Origin: a virus
Lineage: Duplodnaviria > Caudoviricetes
Length of the DNA: 64,000 nt
IMG/VR virus record: IMGVR_UViG_3300037439_000266
Location: 269 to 64,268 of that record
Reading direction: 5' to 3' (one strand)
In this document: in pieces, positions 8-63,999 of the stretch
Layout of the letters: every line of letters starts with the position of its first letter
Position numbering within the stretch: the first letter of the stretch is position 1
Notes under the pieces: generated by a model
What the model was told of the DNA's origin: nothing
Seen by the model: only the letters and a program-made list of their open reading frames with translations
Database searches by the model: none
Position numbers and translations under genes: made by a program

Positions 8-23
8 TGTTTCACGTGAAACA
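8..23. promoter_or_regulatory. parS: parS palindrome TGTTTCACGTGAAACA (copy 1, intergenic)
   Basis: Exact 16-bp match to the canonical chromosomal ParB/Spo0J site. Confidence 0.9.
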
Positions 24-73
24 CGACCCCCGCCCCCCGAACCTCACCCGCCTCACGAACCTCAGGAGTCCCA

Positions 74-271
74 ATGTCCCGCACCGATTTCCCCGCCGAG
101 CCTGTTGTTTCACGTGAAACAGCCCGCGCCGAGGCTCGACTCGCCCAGGCCGACCTGCGCCTGGTCAACCGCGCCCACCAGCTGGGCCAGGCAACCGACT
201 CGGAGCGCCGCAGCGCGGTCACTGCCTACTTCGCGGCTGCCGCTCGCTTCATGGCGACGCGTCCCGCCTGA
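74..271 (+). CDS. Early microprotein, 65 aa; paralog of 349..732
   Basis: RBS caggag; C-ending codon bias; shared A(R/E)xRLAQxDL...GQATDxE motif. Confidence 0.75.
   Translation: MSRTDFPAEPVVSRETARAEARLAQADLRLVNRAHQLGQATDSERRSAVTAYFAAAARFMATRPA
106..121. promoter_or_regulatory. parS: parS copy 2, inside CDS (encodes VSRET)
   Basis: Exact TGTTTCACGTGAAACA. Confidence 0.9.
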
Positions 272-348
272 CCCCCCTGCCCCGGGGGGCGAACGCCCCC
301 CGGGCCCCCGACTCCCGCCTCACCAACCCCACCCGAAAGGCTCTTCTC

Positions 349-732
349 ATGAACACCATCGACCTGCGCCGCCTCGCCGCCGAGACCCGCCTCGCCCAGC
401 TCGATCTGAACGCCGCCCGCCGGGCCGCCGAGGTCGGGCAGGCCACGGACCGCGAGGTCTCGATGGCCGAGGCTGGCCGCGACTCCGCGCTCGAATTCTA
501 CGAGGAGGCCGAGGCGCTGGCCGACGAGGCGACGCCCCTGTTCTCCCCCCGCCCCTGGCTCACCGACCCCTACCTGCTCGCAGTCGCCGACCTCGCCGAG
601 GCGACCTGGGCAGCCCGCGAGGCCGATGTTTCACGTGAAACACTCGTCGGCCTCGCCGAGGACCTGCAGCTCGACCCCTGGCCCACCGAGGCCGAGCTGG
701 AGTGGGCCCACGAGATCCTGAACGAGGGCTGA
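349..732 (+). CDS. Early hypothetical protein, 127 aa
   Basis: RBS gaaagg; codon bias; paralogous N-terminus with 74..271. Confidence 0.8.
   Translation: MNTIDLRRLAAETRLAQLDLNAARRAAEVGQATDREVSMAEAGRDSALEFYEEAEALADEATPLFSPRPWLTDPYLLAVADLAEATWAAREADVSRETLVGLAEDLQLDPWPTEAELEWAHEILNEG
627..642. promoter_or_regulatory. parS: parS copy 3, inside CDS (encodes VSRET)
   Basis: Exact TGTTTCACGTGAAACA. Confidence 0.9.
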
Positions 733-800
733 CCGGCCCCCAACCCCCCGGGAGGCGTGACCCTGTGACAAAGATCACCGGGCTCGCCTCCCAACCCCCC

Positions 801-829
801 TTGTCGCTCTGACACGAACCTGGTAGACT
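801..829 (+). promoter_or_regulatory. SigA/HrdB-type promoter TTGTCG-17-TAGACT with TGTC-N5-GACA palindrome
   Basis: Hexamers with 17-nt spacer upstream of gene 888. Confidence 0.7.
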
Positions 830-887
830 TGTCTTAGACACACGGACGGGGCCCCCGCCCCGTCCCCAACCCGAAAGAAGGCCCGAA

Positions 888-1538
888 ATGGACGCCAACC
901 TCACCGCCCAGGCCCCCGCCCTCCCCACCGACGAGTCCGGCCGCCAGGTCGTCCTGATCGAGGACGGCAAGCAGCAGTGCAGCTGCTCCGACAACTGCCC
1001 CGGCCGCACCACCCGGTTCTTCTCCCAGGGCCACGACGCTCGCCTCGTCACCCGCCTCCGCAACGCCGTCACCGCCGGAGAGCTGCCGATCGCCGAGGCG
1101 TTCGCCGAGATCCTGAAGCGCGGCGGCACGGACCGCCTCCAGATCAAGCTCGACGCGGCCGTCGCCAACGCTCGCAAGCCCAAGGCCCCCAAGAAGGGTC
1201 GGAAGGCCGCGAAGGCGGAGCCCGTCGAGACCTTCGAGCTGGGCGAGTTCACTCTCGCCGTCACGCCCCTGGCGCAGAGCACCAACTTCACCGCCAAGGT
1301 CGGCCGGTGGGAGTACCGGGGCGAGCTGCTCACGTACCAGATCGTGGAGGACGGCCAGCCGTCCGAGGGCGACACGGTCCTGGTGTTCGGGTACGATGAC
1401 AAGAAGGGTGAGCGCCAGCTGACGACCTCCTTCTCCCGCGTCGCCGACGAGCCCGAGGTGGCGATCGAGGGCGACGAGGAGGAACTCGCTCGCATCGTGG
1501 GCGAAGTCCAGGCGGACACCTCCGACATCCCCTTCTAG
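888..1538 (+). CDS. Early protein with CxCxxxC..GHDA Zn-binding N-terminus, Lys-rich linker and SSB-like C-tail (DTSDIPF)
   Basis: RBS gaaagaagg; motifs seen in translation. Confidence 0.8.
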   Translation: MDANLTAQAPALPTDESGRQVVLIEDGKQQCSCSDNCPGRTTRFFSQGHDARLVTRLRNAVTAGELPIAEAFAEILKRGGTDRLQIKLDAAVANARKPKAPKKGRKAAKAEPVETFELGEFTLAVTPLAQSTNFTAKVGRWEYRGELLTYQIVEDGQPSEGDTVLVFGYDDKKGERQLTTSFSRVADEPEVAIEGDEEELARIVGEVQADTSDIPF

Positions 1539-1546
1539 CCGAGCCT

Positions 1547-1568
1547 GGGGCCCCCTTCGGGGGGCCCC
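1547..1568 (+). terminator. 9-bp GC hairpin with cUUCGg loop after gene 888..1538
   Basis: GGGGCCCCC-TTCG-GGGGGCCCC. Confidence 0.6.
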
Positions 1569-1597
1569 GCCCGCTCCCCCGTGAAGCCGCCCGGCAG

Positions 1598-1613
1598 CGT
1601 TTCACGTGAAACA
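1598..1613. promoter_or_regulatory. parS: parS copy 4, CGTTTCACGTGAAACA (intergenic)
   Basis: 15/16 match; 14-bp core GTTTCACGTGAAAC is perfect. Confidence 0.85.
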
Positions 1614-3079: not shown

Positions 3080-3288
3080 CGGTCCAGGTCCTCCTCAGGG
3101 ATGGAGCCGTAAAGGCTCGGGTTAGTGGGGTCACCCAGTTCATCGACCAGCTGGTCCCAGGTGCGCAGCGGGTTGAACTGGGGCTGGGGCTCTTCGGCCT
3201 CCGCCTCGGCAATGGCTTCCATTGCGTCGGGGTCCGCCAGAATCGCAGCGGTTTCGCTTTCCGAGGTCGGCTCGGGTTCATCGGCCAT
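3076..3288 (-). CDS. 70-aa acidic protein resembling the toxin-binding half of Phd/YefM antitoxins
   Basis: ETAAILADPDAMEAIAEAEAE segment; RBS ggag. Confidence 0.6.
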   Translation of the reverse strand: MADEPEPTSESETAAILADPDAMEAIAEAEAEEPQPQFNPLRTWDQLVDELGDPTNPSLYGSIPEEDLDR

Positions 3289-27481: not shown

Positions 27482-27843
27482 GTGAAGAGTTGGCATGGCC
27501 CAACCTGGTCCTGATTGACCTGCGATCCGCCAAGGCGCTGTCCGAGGATGAGTCGCCCGACGCCGACGAGATTTACGCGTCCGCCATCGACGTGCCGGAC
27601 CTCCTCACCGAGGTCAAACGCCTGCGGCAGGAGAACCTGAACCTCCGTGAGATGATCGAGGCAGGGGGCGATCGAGCCCGACGTCTGGAAGGGGCCAACA
27701 CCAAACTGACCAGCGACGCCAAGTGGCTGTTCGGGGAGTTCGGATGGGAGCATTGGCGCGAATGCGACATTCCCGACGAAGAGGATGGCGGATGCGGGTC
27801 CTGCGCCGCCCTAAAGAAAATGAGGCCTGAGTATGGAAATTGA
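27478..27843 (+). CDS. Hypothetical protein, 121 aa
   Basis: ATGA coupling. Confidence 0.7.
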   Translation: MSEELAWPNLVLIDLRSAKALSEDESPDADEIYASAIDVPDLLTEVKRLRQENLNLREMIEAGGDRARRLEGANTKLTSDAKWLFGEFGWEHWRECDIPDEEDGGCGSCAALKKMRPEYGN

Positions 27844-28042
27844 CCTGGAGCGCATCAAGGCCGACATCGCGGACGAGTTCGACATGCCGGACTGGGTCAA
27901 GGCGCACGTTGCGGACCTGATTCTCGAAGTTGAGCGGCTGACTCAGCGCGAGCACAAGCTCAACGCTCTGGAGACGTACGGCGTCGACAATTGGGAGGGC
28001 TACGAGCCCGCCATGAATGACGAAGAGGGGGAGTTCGATTGA
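27833..28042 (+). CDS. Hypothetical protein, 69 aa (LNALETYGVDNWEGY motif)
   Basis: Common phage microprotein motif. Confidence 0.75.
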   Translation: MEIDLERIKADIADEFDMPDWVKAHVADLILEVERLTQREHKLNALETYGVDNWEGYEPAMNDEEGEFD

Positions 28043-29668: not shown

Positions 29669-30103
29669 ATGGACTGTATTAACGGACACAAGAACCCCGA
29701 ACGCTACGCCAACGGCACCTGCAAGCAGTGCACCAAGGACAAAGCTGAGGAGTGGAGGCGCGACCCCGTCAACTGGGAGAAGCGCCGGGAAACAGAGCGA
29801 CTCCGGGCCCAGCGCCAGCGTCAATCCGACCGAGAAGCAGCCCTGACCAAATACGGCCCCGGCTGCCGCTGCTGTGGCGAATCGATCGAGACCTTCCTTA
29901 CGATTGACCACGTAGACGGGGGCGGGGCCGCACATCGAAAAGAGATTTTCGGCCCCAACTACTCGGGACGTCGTCCGGCGGGTAGCCGCACCTACCGCTG
30001 GCTGCGCCTTAACAACTACCCCTCAGGATTTCAGGTCCTGTGCTTCAACTGCAATTATGCCAAGCACGCTCTCGGAGCGTGTCCTCACCAGAAGGGCAAG
30101 TAA
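29669..30103 (+). CDS. HNH-type endonuclease 2 (same family as HNH 1)
   Basis: RBS aaggag; CRCCGE...IDH...LCFNCN. Confidence 0.85.
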   Translation: MDCINGHKNPERYANGTCKQCTKDKAEEWRRDPVNWEKRRETERLRAQRQRQSDREAALTKYGPGCRCCGESIETFLTIDHVDGGGAAHRKEIFGPNYSGRRPAGSRTYRWLRLNNYPSGFQVLCFNCNYAKHALGACPHQKGK

Positions 30104-30104
30104 G

Positions 30105-31286
30105 ATGGAACGTGGCAGGATCTCCGTCGTAGTCGGAGGGCAATTCGGGTCCGAGGGTAAGGGGGCCGTTGCCGCCTGGATCGGACGAACGGCAGTCAAT
30201 GAGGGTCGAGAGGTGTTGGGGGTGCGCGTGGGGGGGCCGAATGCTGGCCATACTACGTACGGCCGCTGCCCCTACGAGATCGATAAGCAGGACAACCCTC
30301 AAGCGAGCTGCGCCAAGTGCAACGAGTTCGGACACCCGTGGGCGCTGCGCCAGGTGCCGGTCGTGGCAGTCACGAACCCCGAGGCGGGGCTGGTCATCGC
30401 GGCCGGTTCCGAGGTGGACCCCGAGGTCCTGGCCACCGAACTGGCCCTGCTCGACCGGGCCGGTTACCGGGCCACGGAGCGCTTGGTCCTGGACGGCAAC
30501 GCGACCCTCCTGATGGAGTCGCACCGTTCGGCCGAGGCCGGGAAGGAGCTGCAGAAGCGGCTCGGCTCCACGGCCAAGGGAATCGGCGGGGCCCGGGTCG
30601 ACCGGCTCTGGCGCGAGGCCCGCACCGTGGCCCTCCACGACGGTTTCCCGCCAGAGCTCTACGGGGACCCGGACATCTCGATGGACACGGCCGACCTGAT
30701 GGAGCGTGTCCTGGCCGAGGGCGGCCACGTCATCATCGAGGGGACCCAGGGCTACGGGCTCGGTCTCCACACCGAGTACTACCCCTTCACGACCTCGGGT
30801 GACTGCCGCGCCATCGACTTCCTGGCGCAGGCCGGGCTCAGCCCTTGGCTCCCCGAAACAGAACTCAAGGTCGTCGTCTGCTTCCGGCCGTTCCCGATCC
30901 GCGTCGCCGGGAACTCCGGGCCGATGGGGGTCGAGACCACCTGGGACAACCTGGGGCTCCCGCAGGAGCTGACCACGGTGACCCAGAAGGTCCGTCGCGT
31001 CGCCGAGTGGGACCCCGCCCTGGTCGAGACCGCAATCCGCGCCAACGGCGGCCTCGGCCCCCACATGGTCCTGGCCCTCACCATGGCCGACCACGTCATC
31101 CCGGAGCTGAAAGGCATGTCCCGGTTCATCGAGGTCGGGGCCGACAATGAGGCGGCCATCCAGAAGTGGGTCGAATCCTCGGGGCTGTCCCCCGAGGTTC
31201 GGGGGGCGCTGTGGGGCCAACTGGGCTACGGCCGCACCCTGCTGGGAACCGGGCCGACTACGATGTTGGGAGACCTTCCCGAATAA
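30105..31286 (+). CDS. purZ: Diaminopurine synthetase, PurZ/PurZ0-type (adenylosuccinate synthetase homolog)
   Basis: GQFGSEGKG (Ser for PurA catalytic Asp), GPNAGHT, EGTQG, TTVT..RR, TMAD. Confidence 0.85.
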   Translation: MERGRISVVVGGQFGSEGKGAVAAWIGRTAVNEGREVLGVRVGGPNAGHTTYGRCPYEIDKQDNPQASCAKCNEFGHPWALRQVPVVAVTNPEAGLVIAAGSEVDPEVLATELALLDRAGYRATERLVLDGNATLLMESHRSAEAGKELQKRLGSTAKGIGGARVDRLWREARTVALHDGFPPELYGDPDISMDTADLMERVLAEGGHVIIEGTQGYGLGLHTEYYPFTTSGDCRAIDFLAQAGLSPWLPETELKVVVCFRPFPIRVAGNSGPMGVETTWDNLGLPQELTTVTQKVRRVAEWDPALVETAIRANGGLGPHMVLALTMADHVIPELKGMSRFIEVGADNEAAIQKWVESSGLSPEVRGALWGQLGYGRTLLGTGPTTMLGDLPE

Positions 31287-62009: not shown

Positions 62010-62112
62010 CATACCCAGTATGGCATACCAGGTAAGTACGTACTAAGTATGGCATACTGGGTAGGTACTAGCATACTGGGTAGGTACTGGCATACTCAGT
62101 ATGCCATACCAC
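62010..62112. repeat. Nested direct/inverted repeats (GCATACTGGGTAGGTACT x2, AGTATGGCATAC x2); candidate packaging site
   Basis: AT-richer tract between terS and the early region. Confidence 0.6.
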
Positions 62113-62560
62113 CTACCCCACCCGCCTCGTCCGTCCCACGGGCCTCAGGAACCTCGTTCGTCTCGCGAACAACAACCGCCCCACCCACCTCACCCACCCC
62201 AGGAATGCCCCCCTACCCCACCTACCCCAGGTACCCCACCCATACCACCCACCTCACGCGTCGCTTTCGCACCACGGTGCCCATCCGTCACACCCGCCCC
62301 CCGGACCCCACCTGACCCAGGGGCACCCCCCGCCCCGGGGACCCCCCTCGCCCCAGGGACAACGTGTGACCCACGCAACTCACAAGCCTCGTCCGCCCCA
62401 CGCGAAACAGGGGTCTCAGGGGGCACGGAGACGGTTTTCCGACCCACCTGCCACTCCCATCCCACCAGCCTCACGCACCTCCCGAACCCCACCTGTCCCA
62501 GGCGTCGCCAGCCGCCCTGCCCATGTGACAAACCTCACATCGAGGAAACCGCTTACCAAT

Positions 62561-62589
62561 TTGTCGCCCGGTCACGGGGCGGGTAAGAT
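62561..62589 (+). promoter_or_regulatory. Promoter TTGTCG-17-TAAGAT
   Basis: Spacing; module duplicated at 63376. Confidence 0.75.
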
Positions 62590-62655
62590 TGGGGGGCGGG
62601 GGCCGGTCGGCCCCCGCCCCGGGGCCCCGGCCCCACGAACCTCAGGAGTCACACG

Positions 62656-62934: not shown

Positions 62935-63063
62935 CACCCGCCCCACCCGCCCCACCCGCCCCGGGAGCCTCGCGGCTCCCGGGGCTCTCGCATGCCCCAC
63001 CCACCTCACCAGCCCCACGTGCCCCTGTGACAAGCCTCACATTGAGGAAATCGCTTACCATAC

Positions 63064-63092
63064 TTGACAGGCGGTCACGCGGCTGGTAAACT
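63064..63092 (+). promoter_or_regulatory. Consensus promoter TTGACA-17-TAAACT
   Basis: Near-perfect SigA consensus. Confidence 0.85.
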
Positions 63093-63144
63093 TGTCGTAA
63101 GACACCTCACCGGGGCCCCGCCCCATGACCGCACGGAGATCACG

Positions 63145-63300: not shown

Positions 63301-63375
63301 CCGCCCGCCCCGGGGGGCCCTCGGGCCCCCCGCCAAAATGTGGCGAACGTCACCCCCCGGCAAACCTTTGCTGAT

Positions 63376-63404
63376 TTGTCGCCCGGTCACGGCGGGGGTA
63401 TGCT
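63376..63404 (+). promoter_or_regulatory. Promoter TTGTCG-17-TATGCT
   Basis: Spacing; paralogous module. Confidence 0.75.
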
Positions 63405-63467
63405 TGGGGGGAACGGCCCCGCCGGGGCCCCGGTCCCGCAAACCTCACGAACCACAAGGAGCACACG

Positions 63468-63828: not shown

Positions 63829-63999
63829 ATGACCACCACCAGCCCCGCCCGCCCCCGGTTCGGCCACGGCCCGATGGCCCCCGCCCCCGCCAAGGCCGCC
63901 GCCCAGAACGCCCGTCGCGAGGCGGCCCAGGCACGGTGCGCCGCCGCCGGTCACGTCGTCCCCGCCGATCGCCTGGCCTGCGCCGCCTGTGGGGGGTAA
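63829..63999 (+). CDS. Early microprotein, 56 aa (C...H...CAAC)
   Basis: RBS gaagga. Confidence 0.7.
   Translation: MTTTSPARPRFGHGPMAPAPAKAAAQNARREAAQARCAAAGHVVPADRLACAACGG

Follow-up and report, generated by a model that had tools for sequence, protein, structure and literature searches.

Organization of the early block

The window, that is, the whole 64,000-nt stretch analyzed, corresponds to bases 269–64268 of a 64,268-bp IMG/VR virus record, which CheckV rates as 100% complete. The 268 bases of the record beyond the window contain only one ORF, of 51 aa. Both terminase genes (small and large, 61859 to 59530) are on the minus strand and run leftward, as do the virion genes. The 750 bp on the right-hand side of the small terminase gene are non-coding and contain iteron-like repeats (62012–62109) and a C-rich tract. 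A block of small rightward genes comes next, spans the end of the record, and ends at position 2386 of the window. Four copies of a parS-type palindrome (parS1 to parS4) are all located in this early block, about 2.4–4 kb from the terminase-proximal non-coding region. Since the copies lie in a rightward early operon near that region, they would be on the first DNA to be transcribed, which is probably also the first to enter.

The genes around the copies are on the plus strand. The genes of a 65-aa protein (74–271) and a 127-aa protein (349–732), which carry parS2 and parS3, respectively, are paralogues (62% identity over 26 residues), and neither has a match in Pfam or PHROG. The gene of a 216-aa protein (888–1538) is clade-specific and was used as the marker to find relatives. 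The gene of a DUF6011 protein (1643–2386) is the last plus-strand gene of the early block. Several families of duplicated mini-genes are also found in the block.

Four paralogous promoter modules, each composed of TTGTCG or TTGACA, a 17-nt spacer, and TAnnnT, are distributed over the early block, and one of them scores 10/12 against the sigma-70 consensus. Two are the plus-strand promoters at 801–829 (TTGTCG and TAGACT) and 63064–63092 (TTGACA and TAAACT), and their sister modules are at about 62561–62589 and 63376–63404. A palindrome, GTGACAA and TCAC separated by 3–4 bases, is located upstream of the promoter in the modules. This palindrome differs from parS and is probably the phage's own operator system. 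The modules span 755–845, 63018–63108, 62510–62600, and 63330–63415; in each, the −35 and −10 boxes flank a GGTCACG element, and such modules are also present in L127, a related contig described later.

Direct and inverted repeat units of GCATACTGGGTAGGTAC (62012–62109) adjoin the small terminase gene and are followed by a strongly C-rich repetitive tract of 500 nt (62110–62600). This whole region (62012–62600) is a candidate for the pac/cos site or the origin region. The positions 63829–63999 in the window and bases 1–253 of the record (L001) each contain a tail of small "MTTT..." genes next to a poly-G/poly-C run, and the two tails are almost identical. They are either tandem paralogues or, in a circularly permuted genome, an overlap that was imperfectly assembled.

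Sequences and positions of the parS copies

The 16-mer TGTTTCACGTGAAACA occurs exactly three times, at 8–23 (parS1), 106–121 (parS2), and 627–642 (parS3), and CGTTTCACGTGAAACA at 1598–1613 (parS4) differs from it only in the first base (C), leaving the 14-bp core intact. Thus, the 16-bp palindrome of the parS consensus, tGTTNCACGTGAAACa, is matched at 16/16 positions by three copies and at 15/16 by one. The sequence-only reading had described four host-type sites of this composition and had taken the palindrome for the chromosomal ParB site of actinomycetes. Both descriptions hold, the palindrome being identical to the ParB site of C. glutamicum, M. smegmatis, and S. coelicolor (PMC7022226, Table 1). 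When up to two mismatches are allowed, the four matches compare with 0.01 expected, and none of 100 shuffled sequences reaches four. All copies are within 1.6 kb, and the rest of the record is devoid of copies in searches with the 12-mer and 14-mer cores with one mismatch allowed. The four are thus all the copies in the 64,268-bp record, which answers the genome-wide count proposed in the same reading. A single isolated half-site is present outside the cluster in the whole record, and no enrichment of half-sites was found in the record.

The positions of the copies relative to genes should be noted. parS1 is intergenic, 50 nt 5′ of the start of the gene at 74–271 and directly 3′ of the GC-rich hairpin at the end of the preceding 51-aa gene. 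parS4 is also intergenic, with the 216-aa gene on one side and the DUF6011 gene on the other. In contrast to these, parS2 and parS3 are in frame within ORFs 74–271 and 349–732 and are both read as V-S-R-E-T, as the earlier reading had stated (residues 12–16 of the 65-aa protein and residues 94–98 of the 127-aa protein, respectively).

Constraint on the in-frame copies

The codons GTT, TCA, CGT, and GAA used for V-S-R-E in the in-frame copies account for 9%, 2.2%, 5.5%, and 16% of their synonymous families in the phage genome, respectively. The probability of these codons given V-S-R-E is 1.8e-5, i.e., about 2 in 100,000. Though the two genes are paralogues, parS2 and parS3 are outside the aligned paralogue segment, and their positions are non-homologous. 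The use of the same frame in both is explained by the third frame of the palindrome, which contains TGA.

Conservation of the sites among relatives

No cultured relatives of the early region or the 216-aa protein were found by megablast, blastn, and tblastn against 50,697 phage records. Among isolates, Actinoplanes phage phiAsp2 comes nearest (terminase 46% identical). The 216-aa protein has 25 metagenomic homologues. Nine syntenic loci (L130–L138) were taken from the contigs of these homologues, and L127, an IMG/VR contig with a terminase 75% identical, was added.

Nine of these relative loci (L127, L130–L133, and L135–L138) have one to three sites each with the same GTTTCACGTGAAAC core, giving 17 parS-type sites in the relatives. 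L134 has no site, but this locus stops at the 216-aa gene. Sites with the GTTTCACGTGAAAC core are present in each locus that extends past the marker gene into the early block. Within the stretches of the relatives examined, no sites were found beyond the early block at up to three mismatches. Conservation in related phages, another check that the sequence-only reading had named, is thus observed. Among more distant relatives, phiAsp2 and L128 lack parS.

The position of parS4 is the best comparable one. L127 has only one parS, which is exactly at the place of parS4, 3′ of the homologue of the 216-aa gene and a hairpin, in a spacer that is otherwise diverged. The parS4-type site is intact in five of the seven aligned relatives, and its position is kept in six. 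In L133, the site has one core mismatch, and in L131, the right half is lost while the left flank is kept. These two cases indicate that the parS4 position is not absolutely constrained. The L132 and L135 orthologues have parS3 at identical codon positions, although their neighboring residues differ. As judged from these comparisons, parS4 and parS3 are conserved in position despite diverged flanks.

A Rho_N-domain (SAP-like) early gene replaces the small paralogous genes of the window in L130 (8571–9668), L131 (9162–9890), and L133 (8378–9076). An in-frame parS is present in the variable linker of this gene in three of five homologues.

The rare codons, the non-homologous positions in the paralogues, and the conservation amid diverged flanks indicate that selection acts on the DNA motif, not on the protein. 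This constraint at the DNA level, together with the conservation across the clade, suggests that the parS copies are functional elements rather than accidents. The number and positions of sites do vary among the relatives, as would be the case if the sites were functionless remnants that arose accidentally or were picked up through recombination with host DNA. However, such an origin conflicts with the negligible number expected by chance, the positions conserved in diverged surroundings, and the rare codons of the in-gene copies, and the genes around the sites are specific to the phage clade. The neutral explanation is strongly disfavored, and we regard it as very improbable.

Absence of partition genes and phage lifestyle

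A six-frame search of the entire record with the profiles of ParB_N (PF02195), HTH_ParB (PF17762), and AAA_31 (PF13614) yielded nothing at E ≤ 1. The same profiles do hit the control genomes. The lack of parA and parB noted earlier for the window is thereby extended to the complete record. A phage parB outside the window, which would argue against the use of host ParB, was looked for and is absent, and genes for ParA or ParB of the phage's own elsewhere in the genome are ruled out by the three profiles. The ParB family is also absent from the gene neighborhoods of the relatives' loci. The parS sites are orphan in this sense, since the complete record has no ParA/ParB profile match.

Profiles of tyrosine integrases and serine recombinases also have no match in the record. 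A temperate partition system of the plasmid-prophage type was rejected, there being neither an integrase or recombinase match nor par genes. The replication genes encode a PrimPol-helicase, a PD-(D/E)XK nuclease, an AAA_24 protein, and a family-A polymerase (PolA). The 69-aa protein encoded at 27833–28042 belongs to the T7 gp5.9 RecBCD-inhibitor family (PF25708, E = 4e-12). Because of the lack of an integrase or recombinase match, the presence of its own replication genes, and the gp5.9-like inhibitor, the phage looks virulent from its gene content, in which many genes have no assigned function.

PurZ0-type synthetase and probable 2-aminoadenine in parS

The earlier remark that the phage DNA may contain 2-aminoadenine (Z) is reasonable, as a PurZ0-type synthetase is encoded at 30057–31286 on the plus strand. 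The closest structure to this ORF is 7VF6 (E = 8e-74), followed by the PurZ structures 6FM1 and 7ODX. 7VF6 is PurZ0 of Gordonia phage Archimedes (PMC12884076). In the PurZ clade, Ser replaces the catalytic Asp in 147 of 147 surveyed phage sequences (PMC12884076), and this diagnostic Ser is present here in the motif GSEGKG. The phage DNA, including parS, therefore probably contains 2-aminoadenine in place of A, as far as the enzyme predicts. PurZ0 homologues with 69–70% identity are on contigs of 60,055 nt and 51,642 nt. The sizes of these contigs equal those of the L131 and L130 contigs, suggesting that the clade probably shares both PurZ0 and parS.

If 2-aminoadenine is present, it occupies five positions per strand of the parS 16-mer. 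As A is replaced, a protein that reads the Z-substituted site must tolerate an extra amino group in the minor groove. ParB reads parS mainly via a helix-turn-helix in the major groove. This mode of reading makes tolerance of a Z-substituted parS by ParB plausible, though ParB is not known to recognize such a site.

Hairpins, intergenic sites, and the 216-aa protein

Two hairpins on the plus strand are predicted 3′ of the 216-aa gene. The first is a GC-rich terminator-type hairpin (1546–1569). The second, conserved hairpin (1580–1606) uses the left half of parS4 as its 3′ arm, which pairs with the conserved flank GTGAAGCCGCCCGGCAG. For parS1, parS4, and the sites at 9703 in L130, 1193 in L137, and 9476 in L132, a hairpin lies on one side and the start codon of the following gene on the other.

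The pairing of parS4 with its flank raises the question of whether ParB is the reader of the palindrome at all. The palindrome could be read by an unrecognized phage protein or function as an RNA hairpin or a terminator-associated element, the identity to parS being coincidental. In line with such a role, L131 keeps the hairpin after losing the right half-site, and most early proteins have no known function. In addition, host proteins might be impeded on Z-containing DNA, a modification that RNA does not carry. However, L127 keeps parS4 without the GTGAAGCCGCCCGGCAG flank, the hairpin exhibits no covariation in support of an RNA role, and the other sites have no such flank. A coincidental identity of 14–16 bp to the universal ParB site, in four copies here and 17 in the relatives, is very unlikely, and the regulatory palindrome in the promoter modules is a different motif, a difference that also counts in favor of ParB as the reader. 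Nor does the protein encoded next to parS4 appear to be a dedicated reader, judging from its predicted structure described below. We therefore give a low probability to a reader other than ParB.

Alternatively, ParB bound at the sites may act as a sensor of the host state or as a roadblock, modulating read-through or expression of the early operon. Abundant ParB, for example before sporulation, would then damp the lytic program. A single early transcription unit, whose promoters are repeated, contains all the sites, and several are directly 3′ of terminator hairpins and just 5′ of ribosome-binding sites, as would suit such a device; the intergenic spacers are short, however, so that the placement may be forced. 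Deferral of the lytic cycle is coupled to host developmental regulators in phi29, but the repression there is exerted by Spo0A, not by Spo0J (PMC2731898). Furthermore, Spo0J binding in B. subtilis barely affects neighboring genes (PMC7022226). We consider a sensor or roadblock function quite improbable.

The 216-aa family has invariant Cys31, Cys33, and Cys37 and an F-x-QGHDAR motif, followed by three helices, a β-barrel, and an acidic tail. The tail ends with DIPF and in this resembles the C-terminal tip of bacterial SSB. Neither Pfam nor PHROG nor the folds of the PDB contain a match to the protein; with its confidently predicted model (pLDDT 80), Foldseek retrieved nothing at E ≤ 0.001 and VIA nothing at Z ≥ 5. 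A role as a hidden ParB-like binder was rejected, since the model has neither a ParB-like nor a helix-turn-helix fold. We regard the protein as a possible new single-strand binder or SSB mimic.

Comparison with known parS systems

The nearest clusters of the lysin are from Actinomycetota, while a scan of 185,579 species genomes with the lysin detected no relative. The nearest isolate, phiAsp2, grows on Actinoplanes. The host is thus placed at the phylum level, in Actinomycetota, and hyphae and sporulation are an assumption of ours.

The closest likeness is found in phi29 and Nf. Host-type parS sites on these virulent phages, which lack ParB, are ascribed to Meijer et al. 2005 as cited in PMC2731898. 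phi29 DNA has five parS sites that are bound by host Spo0J, and evidence that segregation of the phi29 genome into the prespore depends on Spo0J has been reported (PMC2731898). In both cases, several host-consensus parS sites are present without phage ParA/ParB or an integrase, and the host partition protein is the presumed reader. The differences are also clear. phi29 and Nf are 19-kb podoviruses with protein-primed replication, whereas the phage in this study is a 64-kb tailed phage with terminase packaging, in which all sites are in one early block, two of them are in frame, and the DNA probably contains Z. The Spo0A boxes of phi29 have no identified counterpart here, and the present case is known from sequence alone. 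Since the host is an actinobacterium, the entrapment of phi29 in endospores is not directly transferable.

The chromosomal ParABS-SMC systems of S. coelicolor, M. smegmatis, and C. glutamicum use the same palindrome of 14–16 bp, likewise clustered within a few kb. In contrast to the chromosomal sites, those of the phage are not beside oriC or a parAB operon, and their partners would be those of the host; the 64-kb virus does not represent an origin-proximal chromosomal domain with a parAB operon. Centromere-like repeats are also carried by the genomes of plasmid prophages, such as P1 (parABS), N15 (sopAB), and mycobacteriophages (parABS). These phages are temperate and have their own ParA, ParB, and centromere sequence, none of which is true here, and no self-encoded ParABS cassette is found, as parA and parB do not adjoin the sites.

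No paper on host-type parS in actinophages was found by a full-text literature search. What is new here is the orphan host-type parS in an actinophage clade with probable Z-genomes, while the principle itself has a precedent in phi29.

Proposed function of the sites

The sites are real, orphan, and conserved at the DNA level across the clade. On the basis of these sequence features, the four parS copies are rather likely to be functional loading sites for host ParB, with positioning or carriage of the phi29 type as the leading purpose. Host ParB dimers would load at the phage parS sites, close as CTP clamps, and spread. The loaded ParB would tie the phage DNA to ParA and, in some species, to SMC and TopA. 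Unreplicated or silent phage genomes could then be positioned or inherited with the host chromosomes and reach, for instance, spores or daughter compartments. The gain for the phage is the weakest link in this scheme, and positioning or carriage is a guess guided by analogy to phi29. The sequence-only reading had proposed that the phage recruits host ParB to position or segregate its DNA along hyphae or cells, or titrates ParB. Its foundation, that the sites are real, beyond chance, and orphan, stands, whereas the binding, the positioning along hyphae, and the titration are what we infer at most.

Several observations count against loading sites for host ParB. It is not obvious why a lytic phage that encodes its own replication proteins would need partition. 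The lack of sites in the distant relatives phiAsp2 and L128 and the imperfect constraint on the place of parS4 are also unfavorable.

The titration mentioned above would make the sites a sink. Replicated parS copies, numbering in the hundreds, would draw host ParB away from the origin-proximal sites as a form of sabotage, which would disturb segregation, SMC/TopA recruitment, or sporulation septation and hold the cell in a state favorable to the phage. The evidence from the sequences and their conservation fits a sink as it fits ParB loading for positioning. Self-replication by the PrimPol-helicase and PolA would multiply the sites, and actinobacterial chromosomes have only 3–21 parS sites each (PMC7022226). 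On the other hand, parB is non-essential in the actinobacteria listed in PMC7022226, and the phenotypes of its loss are slow, giving little gain per lytic cycle. A sink would also work anywhere in the genome, yet the sites of the relatives are all in the early block within the stretches examined. We thus consider a sink unlikely.

A bolder form of the preferred reading, ParB loading on phage parS, is that host ParB reads a parS in which every A is 2-aminoadenine and that a lytic clade with Z-genomes depends on ParB at its first-expressed end, for a step not described for phi29. We hold this to be possible but doubtful. In that step, the phage might be carried through exospores or hyphal compartments, or its incoming DNA might be protected or organized. 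If both the reading of all-Z parS and the dependence of the clade are true, orphan parS in the early region would be a general phage strategy across lineages, not a peculiarity of phi29.

If the sites work, the phi29-style use of a host centromere protein extends to actinobacteria. This could explain the persistence of virulent phages through development, since actinobacterial ParB organizes the chromosomes in hyphae and spores. The phage also provides a clean test case for a sequence-specific host DNA-binding protein on a site fully substituted with 2-aminoadenine, and tolerance of such a site bears on how Z-genomes evade some host proteins and yet use others. Mutants of the sites, with synonymously recoded or deleted intergenic copies as appropriate, are easy to design owing to the conservation at the DNA level throughout the clade.

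parS in other viral contigs

A pattern scan of IMG/VR gave more than 118 contigs with the parS 16-mer, from all GC classes, 27 of which have at least two sites. These contigs, together with phi29, indicate that host parS on phages is a known and recurrent principle. One viral contig with high GC content (68%), L040 (IMGVR_UViG_3300042013_000076), has two exact parS cores at 3236 and 3759. A tblastx search with L040 returned noise and nothing informative, and the contig is weakly similar to the head-gene region of the phage. The sites in L040 suggest that the location of parS in the early block may not be universal.
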